This document shows positions 21,820-29,764 of a stretch of 64,000 bases of DNA, piece after piece. Made by a program: the position numbers and the translations under genes. How positions within the stretch are numbered: position 1 is the stretch's first letter; each line of letters begins with the position of its first letter. The stretch is from Lingula anatina (lineage: Eukaryota; Animalia; Brachiopoda), in NCBI GenBank assembly GCA_051362555.1, contig CM120641.1, positions 38,322,401 to 38,386,400 on the forward strand, given 5' to 3'. Under the pieces are notes generated by a model. That model saw only the letters and a list, made by a program, of their open reading frames with translations, made no database searches and had not been told where the DNA came from.

Positions 21820-23717
21820 AGGTAGACCACCAATCTGTTTACTAGAACTAAACATATTTTAGAACATAAGTATTTATTATTATTATTATTATTTTTTTTT
21901 TTTTTGAGGCGTACTTCGCATTGTTATTATCTTCTCAACCCTCCCTGGTAGCCATGTCAGCTCCCAATGGTTGTATTATGCACAGAACAGAGCCTTGATT
22001 CAAAACACTCACCTTTTTCTTGTGCTGTGAAATGAAAACTAAGTCATGCTTGGTGGAGGACTTGTGTCCTATGTCATTCTAAAAGATTGGCAAGTTATTT
22101 AGAAGAGAATTATTAAATTAAAAATGTAGTAAAACATTAAGTCCAAGTGCAGGGATGGGTTGAGCAGTGATAAAGGAGTAAGAGAAAATTGCCTCCTCCT
22201 CCCCCTCCCCTCCCCTCCCCTCCCTCCCCCAGGAAAATCCATTTTGGCAGGAATATCTCGTGCAGTGTCTTTACAAAGACTAATAAGTAAAATCTTAATA
22301 TCATTAAATTTACTTGAAGTTGGTATTAAACATTATAGCTGGTTATTCAGGTGATATTGTGCTAACCCATTAAAATGTTTTTTTTTTCAGATGTGACATT
22401 ACCAGTTGTGCCTCATCCTTGTCTGCAAGGTCATTGTTTCTATCTCTGCTAAAGTAACTGGTTTGTTTCACACAGGATATCAAGATTATAAACCAGTGGA
22501 TATACAGAATAACAGGAAAGTTGGTCAAGTTTTGGCAAGAAGATGGATGCATCTCTTCACGATTTCCAAATGCCTTATTGTGTCAGCTCTGTGACTTGTT
22601 TTATTAATTCCTTGAGAAAACCTCATGGCGCAGTCAGATTGAACTTAGATTGAACCCTCAATTTAAGGTCTGGGGACATCTTATTTGAGATTATCACTTT
22701 AACATAAAATAGGGTAGAAAAAAAAATATATATATATATATATGGCTAAAGAAAGGTTAACAGTTTGTTTGAAAGATACATAAGATTGAAAATAATGCTT
22801 GCCTGTTCTTACGATAATTTGAGAGCATCAGTAGCATTTATTCTTCTATTGTAAAAGGTATATATATTTTACAAATGTGTCATAATTGTAAATATGGTTT
22901 ATGTATATATATATGTCACTGATATCATTTTGATGTCAGAGGGACCATAGGCGTAGGTTTTCATTGTTTTTATATCTATAAGATGTGCTAACCATAAAGC
23001 TGTTTTTATGTATCTTTGGGGTTTTGTAGATAACTGAGCAATTCTTCCCTTGAGATTTGATTTAAATGTTTTTATGTTATTGAGGATTGTATGAAAAATT
23101 ATCTAGAGTTAATTTTTTTAATCTAAAAGCCATGATACAAAATTGGTTTATTTGTTAAATGAATAAAATTCAAAACAAAATGTAAATGCTTTTATGCCTT
23201 TATTGATGACTTTTCTGAGAAAAAGTGAATAAAGCTATCAGCATGAGGGTTAAATACAAAGCGCAGAATCAATTGCAAACAGTTTTTATATCATTTTTCC
23301 TCAAACATTTTGTCTCCTATTTCCTGCTGAAAAAAATCAAATATTATTATAAACTTTTGTGTTAATAGAGTGTTTCTTCAACACGTAAATATACAAAACC
23401 GCGTTTAAAGAAAAAAGAATTTGGGTTGTCAAACGGCCAACCGCTTTAATATATGCACCTGCAGCAGATTGTACTTCCAATTTTCAGATGTAGGTCAAAT
23501 ATGCGTTTATGGAAACTGAATAATTTAAATACGTCTGCTACCGTGTGCTCTAACGCATAATGCTTAAGATGACAGCATCATAGTTTCTCTGCGGTACTGG
23601 AAGCAACTATAGCCAGCTCCTCCTTGGGTTTAGCTGAGCACGAGCAACCTGTTACGATCACTCCACCCGCAGCGCCCCCACACGATCCGCGGCATGTTTT
23701 GTTTACCTGCCAGGCGC

Positions 23718-24003
23718 ATGGCTGCCTCCTTCCGATTCCGACGTTACATCGTCGGGTTCGTGTGCGCACAGACAATTTTCATACTCTTCCAGGTTTTTGT
23801 GTTTTATCCATGTGTAGTCAGGGCACCATTAGACTTGGACTTGTTGAAGAGAGGAGCTGACACCACGAAATTGGATGCACAATTTGATCAAACGGTAGGG
23901 TGTTCAGGGACGTTCAGGTCATCCGAATGTGGTTTCTGAATTAATATGTAGTGATTTCAAACCACACTTACTCTGTTTTCTGTGCAAGCTCAACCGTGAA
24001 TAT

Positions 24004-24038
<35 letters not shown>

Positions 24039-27000
24039 TATAATAACGTACATGTAGACTATAAAGTTACGATAGTTAGACCGATTAGTATATAGTCTTT
24101 TGATATTGTGATGACAGAGTACGTGATGTCTGCTCGATCTTTGCTACTCGGGTTTCGGGCCCGTAGATCTATATTACTAAATTACAAAGAGTCGTTTGCG
24201 TCGAGCTGTGTACATACCAGACAAAGCATTGCCTCATGTAGATAAAATACATTAGTATTCAGAATGGACATGAAGTAAATTTTGTTGGTTTAATGCCTCT
24301 CTTCTCAAAATGGATATCAACATGGACCGGTTGCCCATATACATGTATAATGTGCACTTGAAGTTGTAGGGACCTATATAACTTGGAAGACATTGGGCAC
24401 ATTTTATTGTACATGAACCTGCGTCTCAGTCTGTGGTATTTTGACGCAGTTTTATGAAGGGGTTAAAGAGTAAAACGTGCAGATTATAATTTATATGACA
24501 TTTGATATCTGCGTGTACATGTATCAACAGAAACACAATGAATCATATATAAGATAAAGGTTTTTAAAGGATTTTTGAATATATTAAGTAAATTAATTAT
24601 TAAAAAAAACTAAAAAAAAAAAAAAAAAAAAGATTGCTCCAGCTGTGTGGATTTACACTGGAAGTTGAATCAGTCACACTCATTTTTAGAAAGATTTGCT
24701 AGAAAATATTCCAACCTCAACAATTTTTCAGGTACCCTATCCATATGCTGCACACTGGGAATCACTTGACAACAGACCCATTCCTTCATGGTATGAAAAT
24801 GCCAAGTTGGGGATTTTTATACATTGGGGGGTATATGCTGTCCCAGGGTATGCAGTCAATGGGCCATCTGAGTGGTTCTGGTACTGGTGGAAGATTGACC
24901 AGGATTTTTTACAGAGACGGAGGAAAGCAAAAGTCATAACTGGGGAAAGTGTTAAGAAGTTTGTTGCAGATAAATTTTCCTCTGACTGGCAGTATTCTGA
25001 CTTCGCACCACAATTTTTAGGAGAGTTTTTTAATCCAGAGAAGTGGGTAGACATCTTTAAGGCATCTGGGGCAAGGTAAATATGATTATGTGATGGGCTG
25101 CAATGGTTCTTTTCTCTTTCTTTTAAGTGTTTTTAATTTTTATTATTAGGGTTGGTACAAGGCAACATGGGATTCTTTAGATAAGCGTCCAATTCCCAAA
25201 TGGTATGAAGAAGCAAAGCTTGGGGTTTTCATACATTGGGGGGTGTATGCAGTACCTGGCTTTGCTGCAACTTCATCAGAATGGTTCTGGTACTGGTGGA
25301 AGACACCTCAGAAATACTTTGAACAAAATAAAGAATACAGGGTTGATGTTGGTAAAGGTGTGAAGAAGTTTGTTGCAGAGAAACTAGCACCTGGATGGGA
25401 ATACACAGATTTTGCTCCAGAGTTTTTAGGAGAGTTTTTTGATGCTGGGAAATGGGCCAATATCTTCAAGGCATCTGGTGCAAGGTACTTAACTTTTCTT
25501 ATTTAATGATAATGTTAATAATAATGATAATAGCATTTATTTCTTGCAATGAAAACAGTTGGATATTGCACCTGATAATAAGGGATTTATAAAATATGAA
25601 AAATGATGTATACGTAAGAAAAATAAATTCGTTCTCAGCCACACAGCCATTGTATGCTCAGTGTGTAGCATTATTTTATTTATTTTTTTTCAAAATAAAT
25701 GTTGAATATATAAATTATATTTCTGGTATTTGTGTAATTTAACATATGGTAACTCCATGGTGGAGTGTGTTGTGTGGTATTTGTTGGGAGTTGGTAATTG
25801 TTGTTTTTCAAATAAACTGGAGATGGGTTGCATAGTTTTGGTACAACATTTTGTAATATACTTAGTTACTATATTGCTCTGCATATATGAATTATAAGTA
25901 CTAATGGTACCAGTATATATTATTGCTGCATGTATTCCTAATTTTGTTCATAGATATGATTCATATATAACGGAATTTTATGGATAAATTGTTAGCAAAT
26001 TTGAGGACAGTTTCACACTACTCAGTCACTTCAAATGACATTTATGATCTATTTTGCTGTATCATATGATTCATATTTTAAAAACTCAGCACTGTGAATG
26101 CTCAAACGTGCATGTTGATGATTGATCCATGATTTAGAAATTATATGTGACATTGTCATAGATATGCAGAATTATGCAAAACACAAAACCTCTGTGATTG
26201 AAATTTGTGCTTCATTAATACTTATTGTGATCAATATTGTAGATATGTGGTCCTGACCAGCAAGCACCATGATGGTTTTGCTCTGTGGCCTTCCAAATAT
26301 TCCTGGAACTGGAACTCTGTAGACAATGGTCCACATATTGATATCATAGGTAAACAGCCTATTCACGATCAACAGGGACAGATCCAGATATATTTTCTGA
26401 CAGTTTTCCAAATTATCTGTCTTGATCCATACTCCATTTTTGGTCGTCTTCTGAAAGAAAAAATCAGATGCCCGTCAATGTAAACTTGAAAAGTTCTGAC
26501 GGCCTTCCAGAAGACACAGAAGACAGCTTCCATCCACCCCTGGATTCCTTTTTCTAGTGAATATTATAGCATTGCTCTTACTGGTGGTTATTAATTAGTA
26601 CAATGTCCCTTTAATTTTCCTATGTTTACAACTGGAAAAGAATATTTAAATCTTTTTTTTACACTTCATCATGTTTTTATAAAATAAATATTTTAGGTAA
26701 TCTGTCTGCTGCTATCAGGAAGAATACAGACTTGAGGTTTGGGTTGTATCACTCCCTTTATGAGTGGTATAACCCACTTTACATGAGAGATAAAGCTAAT
26801 GGCTACTGGACACAAGACTATGTAAAGGTTGTACCTCTTCATATAAAGTCATTTAGACTATCAGGGACAGAATAGAACACAAGTATTGCATTTATTGTGT
26901 TGATTTTGAGGATTTGATTTTGAATTTTGATTGTTATTGGTTAATTTCCTAATTGCATAATGCTGGTAAAACAATTTTGAGAACCTAGTGTTTTCTTACA

Positions 27001-28990
27001 ATAAATCATCTATCTTCTCCATATACTGTATCATCCAAGTATTACTACATTCTTCATTTCAGGCCAAACTTATGCCAGAGCTTCATGATATAGTGGAGAC
27101 CTACAAACCTGACATTGTGTGGGCAGATGGACAGTGGGAAGCTTCAGCCAACTACTGGAATAGTACACAGTTCTTGGCATGGCTGTACAATCAGAGGTAG
27201 GTTCTCCAGCTTAACCGTTGCTGTTTTATACTATTTATCTAATGAATAATGCAGTTGTCAATATTGAAACTTGTACCAGTGTTCTTGTTGTTTATGGTCT
27301 ACTGTCTTTTAGAAGAATTGAATTTTACCGCTTACACTTGAAGACTTGAAAATAAAAGCTTGCATGACACTGGAATCCTCAAAGTATTTTTTTTTTTTTT
27401 GTGATATTAAAACCTTTGATATCATTTTAGCTAAATTACTCAATCAATGATGGACTGATAAAGTCATTTCATTAACTGAAGTTAATTTTTTAAACAGGTG
27501 AAAAGTGTAGGCTAACTTGAGCCTAGATATCCCATGTGAATATACTAAACTTTATATCACAATTATGTTGTCTTTTCTAGTCCTGTGAAGGATTATGTGG
27601 TGACCAATGACAGGTGGGGCAATGAAACAAATTGCAAACATGGTGGTTTTTTAACCTGCTCTGACAGATATACACCAGGTATTTCATTCTTTGTGCTGGT
27701 AGAGGGCATGTAGCTCTGCATACTTGAATAAATAATTTCCAGTTGTTATAGGTCTGTTATATGTCTTTTCCATGCAAGGGCATAACAGATAATCTGCATA
27801 CATCATTTCAATTTTATGCTTGTCTAACGTACTGTATAGAAATTTTATAAAACTGGTGTAACATTTGTTTTAATACTAGTAACAGAGGAAATTAAAAAGT
27901 GTAAGCAGATTTCACAAGATTGAATATGCACATATGAACAAAATTTTATTTTTGTGATGTCCACCTGAACTCAAGTATGCTATTTTTCACTTTTTAGACT
28001 CAGTGTTGCACAGAAAATGGGAAAACTGCATGACCATTGACCGCAATTCTTGGGGCTACAGAAGACATGCTGACTTAGCAGATTACTTTACCATTGAACA
28101 ACTGGTGCATCTACTGATCAAGACTGTAAGGTGAAGATTTCAAATCATTCTCTACATTTAAATTTCTTCCTCCCAATTTTTTAAAAAAATAGTTGAAGAT
28201 AATTTTCACAGTTTATAAGATCTTAAAGCATGAAAATTTCATAGTAATTGGTCCAAGGACAGATCCAAATTTTTCAAAAGTTACTTGTCTGTCTCTTTAT
28301 ATCTTTATTTTCAGTAAGGGTGGGAATCTGTTGATGAATGTAGGACCAACAGCAGATGGCATGATTCCTCCTGTGTTTGAAGAAAGGTTCAGGCAGATGG
28401 GAGAGTGGATGGGGGTGAATGGAGAAGCTATTTATGGCACCAGGGCTTGGAGAGTACAGAATGAAGGAGATACAATTTGGTAAAGAAAAAAGTCAGAAAT
28501 TTGATACATTAGTTGCCTCTTGGATAAAACACAACTTTGCAATTAAATTGTTCTTTATTAAAGGAAATTTTTATTGAGACATGACACCCCAAGTTTATAA
28601 GAAAAACATATTGTCATTGAGAAGTTGTAAAACTGGTATACTTTTTAGATTATAAAATTTCTCTGCAACATACTAGTAGTTGCTTTTTCAATTTTCTTTT
28701 TCTGTACTATGTTCTAATCAGTTTTCATTAAATTTTGCAGGTATACTTCAAAGCAGACAACAAGTGGTCTAGTGATTTATGTACATCTCTTGAAGTGGCC
28801 ACAATCAGAAACATTGTTGCTAAAAACACCCAAAGCCAAAGCTACCACAAAGGTGACTTGGCTGGGCTTTAGCAAGCCAATACAACACAAGACTGACCCC
28901 AGTGCTGTCACTGTTGTCATGCCCAGGGTATTTTTGCATGAAATACCTTGTCAGTGGGCATGGGTTTTTAAGCTAGAGGGATTTGAGTAA
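23718..28990 (+). CDS. FUCA: Alpha-L-fucosidase (GH29, FUCA1/FUCA2-like); 512 aa with exon 2A or 509 aa with exon 2B
   Basis: Exons 23718-23894, [24732-25075 or 25150-25484], 26243-26349, 26697-26827, 27063-27196, 27581-27678, 27998-28130, 28315-28479, 28741-28990. Motifs [31 protein letters not shown] (nucleophile), [34 protein letters not shown]. Confidence 0.95.
24732..25075 (+). CDS. FUCA: Fucosidase alternative exon 2A (344 nt, phase 0 to 2)
   Basis: Acceptor TTTTTCAG at 24731, donor AG|GTAAAT; encodes [16 protein letters not shown]...IFKASGAR. Confidence 0.9.
25150..25484 (+). CDS. FUCA: Fucosidase alternative exon 2B (335 nt, phase 0 to 2), paralogous to 2A
   Basis: Acceptor TATTATTAG at 25149, donor AG|GTACTT; encodes [14 protein letters not shown]...IFKASGAR with no stops. 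Confidence 0.88.
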
Positions 28991-29764
28991 CATTCTCCTC
29001 CTTACTGGAAAGTTCATAATTTTGTTGGTGTTTATTTTTATCAACATTTTTAAAAATATGTTTGACATATTTTTCTCTTTACTTTTACTCATTGAAATGT
29101 TAATGCTTAAAGCATTCCTTATTTTTTTATGATGATTTTACATTTTTGTTCAGTTTTGTAAAACTTTTATGAAAAAAACTGAAAACTTTTATTTTGACAT
29201 GATTGTATTTTGGTTGTGAAATCTCCAACTTTGTTAAAGTATTGCTGCTACTTGTAAAGTCACTGATTTGCTTCTTAATTTACATGTGTTATAAAGTAGT
29301 TTCAGTGCACATATTGCTTGATTTAATAGCTGAAGATGGCTATTGTGTCATATTTATGAAACTAATGTGGACAATATACAAAGGCGATCTAAATGTTATA
29401 TTGTTATTGTGAGAGTGCCCTTGCTTAGTGAAACATAGCATACCAAAATATGTGGAGTGTGGGTTCCCAAACAAAAATAAAAATTCATTATCAATAACTT
29501 TGGGGGAAATTTACAAGGAGAGTTTACTGATAAGGTAGCAATTTATACTTGGACTTAACATATTACTTTGTTCAATATTAGTGGGAGTTTTATAAATTTA
29601 TGGAAAAGGCAGTTGATATTCTTTAGTTGAGAAGCTTTAAGAAGGTAATTTAGAAGTCGTAGAAGCCTCTTTATATATAAAAATAAACATTTAAAAAACA
29701 TCTTTTGTCTCTTTGTATTGAATTTGCCATAATTTGCATTTCATAAATTATCTTCTGATTGTGT

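Follow-up and report, generated by a model that had tools for sequence, protein, structure and literature searches.

The stretch of Lingula anatina DNA analysed here, 64,000 nucleotides (nt) long and referred to below as the window, contains a GH29 alpha-L-fucosidase gene that matches the proteins XP_013409767/XP_013409768 of this species. Judged by its domains and motifs, the product is a GH29A animal alpha-L-fucosidase. The second exon of the gene is present as two homologous copies, 2A and 2B, separated by an intron of 74 nt. RNA reads join each copy to exons 1 and 3, and we regard it as practically certain that the copies are spliced one or the other, i.e., in a mutually exclusive manner. 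An earlier note, made from the letters of the DNA, had proposed such a pair, and its coordinates, lengths of 344 and 335 nt, phases and 74-nt intron are all correct. The parts of the gene are as follows.

23694..23894, plus strand: exon 1, coding part, amino acids 1-67 (ATG start of the open reading frame at 23694; 201 nt; phase-0 donor; read joints at 23894)
24732..25075, plus strand: exon 2A, mutually exclusive, 344 nt (82 reads from 1 to 2A, 124 reads from 2A to 3; PF01120, E 1.1e-29)
25076..25149, plus strand: 74-nt intron between the copies (never listed as spliced; few reads retain it)
25150..25484, plus strand: exon 2B, mutually exclusive, 335 nt (96 reads from 1 to 2B, 109 reads from 2B to 3; PF01120, E 4.2e-27)
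26243..26349, plus strand: exon 3, shared, with the H190/H191 pair (read joints; residue map)
26697..26827, plus strand: exon 4, shared, with Y235 (read joints; residue map)
27063..27196, plus strand: exon 5, shared, amino acids 262-306, with W281 and the nucleophile D283 (read joints; residue map)
27581..27678, plus strand: exon 6, shared, amino acids 306-339, with R317 and the acid/base D334 (read joints; residue map)
27998..28130, plus strand: exon 7, shared, with W357 (read joints; residue map)
28315..28479, plus strand: exon 8, shared (read joints)
28741..28990, plus strand: exon 9, coding part through the stop codon, C-terminal beta-sandwich (read joints; model)

Both copies of exon 2 are bounded by AG and GT, both follow the phase-0 exon 1, and both are 3n+2 nt long. 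With the read-supported downstream joints, exons 1-2A-3 to 9 form an open frame of 520 amino acids and exons 1-2B-3 to 9 one of 517, and either copy alone thus gives a full-length enzyme, as the earlier note had said. It had also predicted the consequences of double inclusion and of skipping, and these follow from the 3n+2 lengths: with both exons present an early TAG is reached inside 2B (25178-25180, codon 192), and with neither the frame is broken and a stop comes at codon 77. The identity between the encoded segments, put at about 60% by eye, comes to 62% (69 of 111 aligned residues), and that between the nucleotide sequences to 67%. Each exon by itself matches the Pfam domain PF01120 (E 1e-29 for 2A and 4e-27 for 2B). 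When the region 23401-29300 was compared with the whole window by BLAST, no repeat other than the 2A/2B pair and no further duplicated exon of the gene was found, in agreement with the claim that this is a single gene with both exons in cis.

The protein containing 2A is identical to XP_013409767.1 (isoform X1) at 514 of 520 residues, and that containing 2B to XP_013409768.1 (isoform X2) at 512 of 517, so both isoforms are already present in the automated NCBI annotation. RefSeq holds a further, partial locus with exons 1, 2A and 2B (XP_013409770-72) that has no counterpart in the 64-kb window and is presumably an assembly or haplotype duplicate. Exon 1, whose start is identical to that of XP_013409767, encodes a basic N terminus, a single long hydrophobic helix and a linker; the helix spans amino acids 15-42 in the model, with a hydropathy peak of 2.33 at amino acids 19-37, and is likely a membrane anchor or signal.

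Nine RNA sequencing (RNA-seq) runs carry the species label, eight of which were used (X6 was left out), with 6-30% of each run sampled. Over these eight runs the junction totals were 82 reads from exon 1 to 2A, 124 from 2A to 3, 96 from 1 to 2B and 109 from 2B to 3; the 124 reads come from three runs, and the likeness cut-offs differed between the read sets (95 and 92), the higher one probably having lowered the 1-to-2B count of run X7. Neither a 2A-to-2B joint nor a 1-to-3 joint was listed in any of the eight runs; because joints were listed from three reads per run upward, up to two such reads per run could be hidden. The junction counts therefore bear out the splicing that the earlier note had predicted. 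Within the 74-nt intron, X8 and X9 have 3-6 reads. These two runs also show two alleles at once in both exons, which argues against one exon per haplotype.

The share of 2A among junction reads differs sharply between sample sets. It is 54/97, 80/115 and 68/94 (56-72%) in study P3 and 0/27, 4/29, 0/22, 0/14 and 0/13 (0-14%) in studies P1 and P2; between these sets tissue, stage, genotype and method are inseparable, as P3 is more divergent in sequence and comes from an unstranded library. Reads of P3 within the 74-nt intron (25102-25131) carry small indels with a net gain of 2 nt, so the length of this intron is nearly preserved in a divergent population. The P3 runs alone also carry a G>A variant at position 25484, the last base of 2B (donor position -1), which changes Arg to Lys and is found in 29/35, 2/20 and 4/11 of their 2B-to-3 reads. 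This donor variant was considered as the cause of the shift toward 2A and is unsupported: it is present in 29/35 reads of X7, where 2A makes up 56%, and in 2/20 reads of X8, where 2A makes up 70%.

Purifying selection acts on both copies. Between 2A and 2B, the nonsynonymous rate (dN) is 0.28 and the synonymous rate (dS) is 1.92, so that the dN/dS ratio, a check suggested in the earlier note, is about 0.15; the proportion of differing synonymous sites (pS) is 0.69, and since these sites are near saturation both copies must have been retained for a long time. Among the variants listed (40 of 96 and 40 of 98 rows of the read tables), synonymous changes account for 4 of 4 in 2A and for 7 of 10 in 2B, compared to a neutral expectation of 20-25% (P of 0.002-0.004 and 0.001-0.004, respectively). 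Inclusion of one amino acid difference from RefSeq brings 2A to 4 of 5 (P of 0.007-0.017). The copies agree at 37 of the 41 columns whose conservation among 109 relatives reaches 90% or more, and at 32 of the 73 remaining columns. One variable column is common to both exons (25017-25019 in 2A and 25426-25428 in 2B): RefSeq has Ser in 2A, the P3 reads have Ser in 2B, and the window has Leu in both. It sits within an 18-nt tract that is identical in 2A and 2B, and a short gene conversion at this one site is possible.

We favour the view that exclusion results from poor spliceability of the 74-nt intron, backed by nonsense-mediated decay (NMD). This intron is the shortest of the nine in the gene and has the longest pyrimidine run among them, 18 nt of pure pyrimidines that end 25 nt before its 3' end. 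Candidate branch adenosines, guessed from the sequence, lie 27-28, 50-51 and 60-61 nt from the 2A donor. A steric limit on the distance between donor and branch point is given as 50 nt (PMC5740500), and with a branch point at 27-28 or 50-51 nt, at or under this limit, the intron would be hard to splice. Double or skipped products, which carry a premature stop, would be removed by NMD, a mechanism on which 14 of 19 clusters of non-3n exons are described to rely in Caenorhabditis elegans (PMC4165533). Against the steric part stand the strict yUnAy matches in this intron, which are confined to sites 13 and 7 nt from the acceptor, and the presence of an AG after the upstream branch candidates, at intron position 51; moreover, steady-state reads do not separate steric exclusion from NMD.

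Two other ways of preventing double inclusion were considered and are not favoured. The consensus of U12 donors is GTATCCTT, and the donors of the three introns around the pair are GTAGGG, GTAAAT and GTACTT; all three are ordinary GT-AG introns, so U2/U12 incompatibility is not indicated. A model of competing RNA pairings did not pass a control with natural sequence. In this model, 25 nt of the 74-nt intron form a duplex with intron 1 (-23.1 kcal/mol, a value that 0 of 40 shuffles reached) or with the intron that follows (-20.4 kcal/mol, 1 of 40), and natural tiles score as well in 12 of 144 cases for the pairing with intron 1 and in 62 of 144 for the other.

The protein has the GH29A domains PF01120 (catalytic) and PF16757 (C-terminal), and its predicted models are confident, with a predicted local distance difference test (pLDDT) score of 89.9 for the isoform with 2A (isoform A) and 91.8 for that with 2B (isoform B). 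The predicted fold, a (beta/alpha)8 barrel followed by a beta-sandwich, resembles that of human FucA1, which is the best match of both models (for isoform A against 7PLS, Z 53.6 and a root mean square deviation of 1.3 A over 428 residues; for isoform B, E 1.4e-62). In the model, exon 2 supplies an N-terminal arm, barrel strand 1, a loop with F96, H98, E114 and W115, inserted helices and barrel helix 1, and the next barrel strand begins in exon 3. Twelve residues are listed as the GH29A active site (PMC11796335). Mapped by motif, four of them are in exon 2 (F96, H98, E114 and W115) and eight in the shared exons 3-7; the animal-type acid/base Asp and the fucose pocket of Phe, His, Glu-Trp, His-His, Tyr, Trp, Arg and Trp are all found in isoform A. 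The earlier note had spoken of an exchange of active-site exons. Exon 2 does carry the HWG His (H98) and the E-W pair (E114/W115), the motifs FIHWGVY and SEWFWYWW are kept in both copies, and 4 of the 12 active-site residues are indeed encoded there. However, all four are identical in 2A and 2B, and both catalytic aspartates, the nucleophile D283 in exon 5 and the acid/base D334 in exon 6 (placed by motif, with the assignments of PMC9548408 and PMC11796335), belong to shared exons.

The differences between the copies fall mostly at poorly conserved positions and in two loops. The loop just before E114 has eight residues in 2A (GYAVNGPS) and seven in 2B (GFAATSS), compared to four in most relatives. 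The second variable stretch, just after W115, is 13 residues longer than in FucA1 in the alignment with 7PLS (gaps of 5 and 8 columns), the excess that the earlier note had given. 2A carries a clustered RRRKAK patch, and the net charge of the second stretch is +3 in 2A versus +2 in 2B. Model confidence at the insertion is a pLDDT of 74-75 at amino acids 121-140 of 2A, the lowest of its barrel, and 88-94 in 2B. As the contacting residues are identical and the differences lie in the flanking loops, the fucose pocket itself is not swapped, only its surroundings.

Taking these results together, we propose, with a probability of roughly 0.6, that the exchange of paralogous exons 2 gives two enzymes, of 520 and 517 amino acids, with the same fucose-binding and catalytic residues and different loops, likely tuning access for different fucosylated glycans. 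Both isoforms are very probably functional, and the odds are slightly in favour of a measurable difference between them in substrate, pH or stability profile. The fucose pocket would stay unchanged, and the rim on the aglycone side would be altered by the loop before E114/W115 and by the helical insertion of 13 residues behind this pair, as in Drosophila PGANT9A/B; loop swaps in GH29 enzymes have been reported to alter activity (PMC6600218, PMC11796335). Several observations weigh against this proposal. All four contacting residues are identical in the two copies, and both loops are hypervariable in the subfamily of long-loop proteins to which the gene belongs, so the differences could represent drift under relaxed constraint. 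The second-loop charges are close, unlike in PGANT9, and a charge switch of the PGANT9 kind is a weak candidate. Regulation by tissue or stage is not established by the 2A share, because the 2A-rich study P3 is also genetically divergent from the window and was made from an unstranded library. The Arg-to-Lys variant at the last base of 2B lies outside the synonymous test, and its inclusion would slightly weaken the excess.

The same observations would fit a pair of biochemically equivalent enzymes, really spliced and both kept, in which subfunctionalised expression maintains the two exons and the loop differences are drift. Besides the identical contacting residues and the similar loop charge, the concentration of differences at unconserved columns, the free variation of the loops among relatives and the dependence of the 2A share on the sample set would agree with this explanation. 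We nevertheless consider it unlikely, as the near-saturated pS of 0.69 indicates that both copies were kept for long and as annotated swaps in seven other genera, some of which replace fucose-binding residues, would be hard to explain by drift alone. It is also conceivable, if rather improbable, that the swap alters a property other than the preference for certain glycans, such as the contacts within an oligomer, stability, the pH optimum or cleavage by proteases at the RRRKAK patch of 2A. FucA1 is tetrameric and GH29 interfaces are described as not conserved (PMC9548408), the 2A barrel is modelled with least confidence at the insertion (pLDDT of 74-75 versus 88-94 in 2B), and the N-terminal helix suggests a membrane-bound enzyme of the secretory pathway. 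On the other hand, both variable stretches adjoin E114/W115, the equivalents of which hydrogen-bond fucose in solved relatives (PMC11796335). That 2A and 2B come from different loci or haplotypes, or that one is a dead duplicate, is very improbable. The partial RefSeq locus XP_013409770-72 implies that assemblies are unstable here, and 2A is near zero in 5 of the 8 runs; yet both exons lie in cis within the window and splice to the same exons 1 and 3, the contig from which each RefSeq isoform derives has one and the same length, X8 and X9 show two alleles in both, and the variants are mostly synonymous in both. An exon that is never spliced or evolves neutrally, or an origin from separate loci or haplotypes, is thus largely refuted by the reads, the selection and the location in cis.

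Returning to the proposal of two enzymes with exchanged loops, their origin can be placed with the help of two trees. In a tree of 49 exon-2 segments, a sample that includes no other named brachiopod, 2A and 2B form a single clade (support 100/99) with a long stem, which places the duplication after the separation from every relative sampled. The pair would thus appear to have arisen by an old tandem duplication within the Lingula lineage. A second tree, built on the shared part (41 rows), puts the gene together with 11 long-loop proteins, among them those of Solemya, Tegillarca, Octopus and Owenia (support 85-90, unstarred). Many or most proteins of this subfamily share the N-terminal hydrophobic helix, and their loop lengths vary widely, from 7 to 11 and from 32 to 48 residues. 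The long-loop GH29 proteins of spiralians are those labelled P0006, P0038-P0043, P0045-P0048 and P0143-P0152. No second exon-2 variant of this subfamily was seen in the 10 clusters looked up; the relatives share no more than about 50% identity, and it does not follow that the pair is absent from them. Among 150 representative matches, 35 end at a G-A-[K/R] motif, which is the end of exon 2, and this suggests that the intron position there is old and shared with other animals. Duplication of the exon would have been feasible because the anchor exon is set apart by an intron from what is a complete beta-alpha barrel module, the end of which lies at this apparently shared position.

The surroundings of the fucosidase contain two further features. 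Intron 3 has a dispersed repeat (26381-26500), which many RNA reads from elsewhere overlap partly and on both strands. Downstream, on the same strand, lies the gene for the zinc transporter ZIP11 (XP_013409766, 30691-38905); database entries that join ZIP11 to the fucosidase look like annotation artefacts.

The Lingula gene is not unique, as comparable GH29 swaps are annotated in seven other genera. A scan of 151 fetched proteins for pairs that are alike after exon 2 and unlike within it gave 37 close pairs, of which one from Octopus was conspicuous in addition to that of Lingula (1.00 and 0.72). Ten clusters were then looked up, a biased sample because they had been picked for isoform names or flags. 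Of the eight genera with at least two annotated isoforms, seven show swaps of a homologous block (Octopus, Pecten, Mizuhopecten, Ruditapes, Mercenaria, Tubulanus and Branchiostoma), and Littorina does not; when 19 isoform pairs were mapped on the Lingula exons, 17 differed in one block and 2 did not. We take these genera to be molluscs, a nemertean (Tubulanus) and amphioxus (Branchiostoma). This pattern outside Lingula comes from automated annotation, in which tandem paralogues may have been joined into chimeric models; in Octopus there is such a paralogue, on a contig of equal length.

In Octopus sinensis, Pecten, Mizuhopecten, Ruditapes, Mercenaria and Tubulanus, the swap of the module with the His and Glu-Trp residues also takes in the signal peptide, and in these molluscs and Tubulanus the module appears from the annotated proteins to be an alternative first exon. 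In three sets of Branchiostoma it is swapped internally, in a block that starts where Lingula exon 2 starts. Swaps of the block with the nucleophile are annotated for Pecten, Mizuhopecten, Ruditapes and Mercenaria (three variants), and in all four bivalve genera the swap relative to isoform X1 begins at Lingula residue 262, the first of exon 5; a variant with a one-residue deletion is common to two scallops and a clam. These bivalve isoforms are labelled P0310/P0311, P0315/P0313, P0062/P0318 and P0323/P0322/P0320. For the acid/base block, within Lingula exon 6, swaps are annotated in Ruditapes and Tubulanus, and Mizuhopecten X4 and Tubulanus X3 combine two swaps. In the internal alternative block of the three Branchiostoma sets (P0334, P0340 and P0341) Val replaces the fucose-binding His, and these variants are possibly not fucosidases; in a Tubulanus variant Glu-Trp is replaced by Ala-Phe. 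The sets that were placed in the tree (Ruditapes, Tubulanus and Branchiostoma) fall among short-loop paralogues. We suggest tentatively, with more doubt than confidence, that animal GH29 genes repeatedly evolved combinatorial cassettes, in which the His/Glu-Trp, nucleophile and acid/base exons were duplicated and swapped in at least four phyla, so that one gene may encode a small panel of glycosidases, some variants of which may act on another sugar. Among these swaps, that of Lingula is the one validated by reads.

As the Lingula isoforms differ in one barrel module and are identical over the other ~400 residues, they already provide a controlled comparison with which to ask what loops determine linkage, aglycone or pH preference in animal GH29A fucosidases, and amount to a loop-swap experiment by nature on the basis of their aglycone specificity. 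Engineering of GH29 loops is in use to tune transfucosylation (PMC6600218, PMC11796335). If the swaps in molluscs, the nemertean and amphioxus are true, exon shuffling of active-site modules would be a recurrent and apparently undescribed route by which marine invertebrates diversify fucose catabolism, and many natural chimeras would be supplied for assay.

The earlier note knew of no mutually exclusive splicing in a GH29 gene. As far as the literature goes this stands: we found no paper on such splicing or on the Lingula isoforms in a search that left subscription journals mostly outside. The isoforms themselves were already annotated by NCBI, and comparable swaps are annotated in the seven genera. 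The word "fucosidase" is absent from the text and six supplements of PMC7954323, whose online event list was outside the scope, and "FUCA" is absent from the text of PMC5740500, whose supplements were outside it. Recurrent exon swapping in animal fucosidases thus apparently is an undescribed pattern.

Homologous mutually exclusive exons that alter residues on the surface close to functional sites form an established class (PMC7954323), and several described systems resemble the Lingula gene. Human FucA1 (7PLS; PMC9548408) has the same fold, 50% identity over 428 aligned residues and all 12 active-site residues; the Lingula enzyme differs in its long N-terminal hydrophobic helix, two longer loops (by 3-4 and 13 residues), its long-loop grouping and the duplicated exon. 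The seven annotated genera share with Lingula isoforms which are the same except in one homologous block matching a Lingula exon, whereas they also swap the nucleophile and acid/base exons and, in the molluscs and Tubulanus, apparently use the module as an alternative first exon. The C. elegans clusters, including gly-5 and gly-6 (PMC4165533), are described as excluding double inclusion by a short intervening intron and/or, for non-3n exons, by NMD, but their steric cases have introns of less than 40 nt and 3n exons, whereas the Lingula intron has 74 nt and its exons are 3n+2. In coq-2 of nematodes, annelids and molluscs (PMC7434440), the mutually exclusive internal exons 6a and 6e likewise remodel the core of an enzyme, possibly with repeated origins. 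There the e-exon is reported to have its own invariant residues and a demonstrated product switch, whereas in Lingula no contacting residue differs between the copies and the pair is restricted to one lineage among the sampled taxa. Exons 8A/8B of Drosophila pgant9 (PMC6115407) also belong to a glyco-enzyme, where the choice between the exons is biased by tissue and exchanges a loop close to the active site. However, pgant9 encodes a transferase, its swap is in the lectin domain, and opposite loop charges and substrate preference were demonstrated by assay, while the Lingula enzyme is a predicted hydrolase with the swap in the catalytic barrel and close charges. The Lingula pair is therefore a new member of the known class of homologous mutually exclusive enzyme exons.

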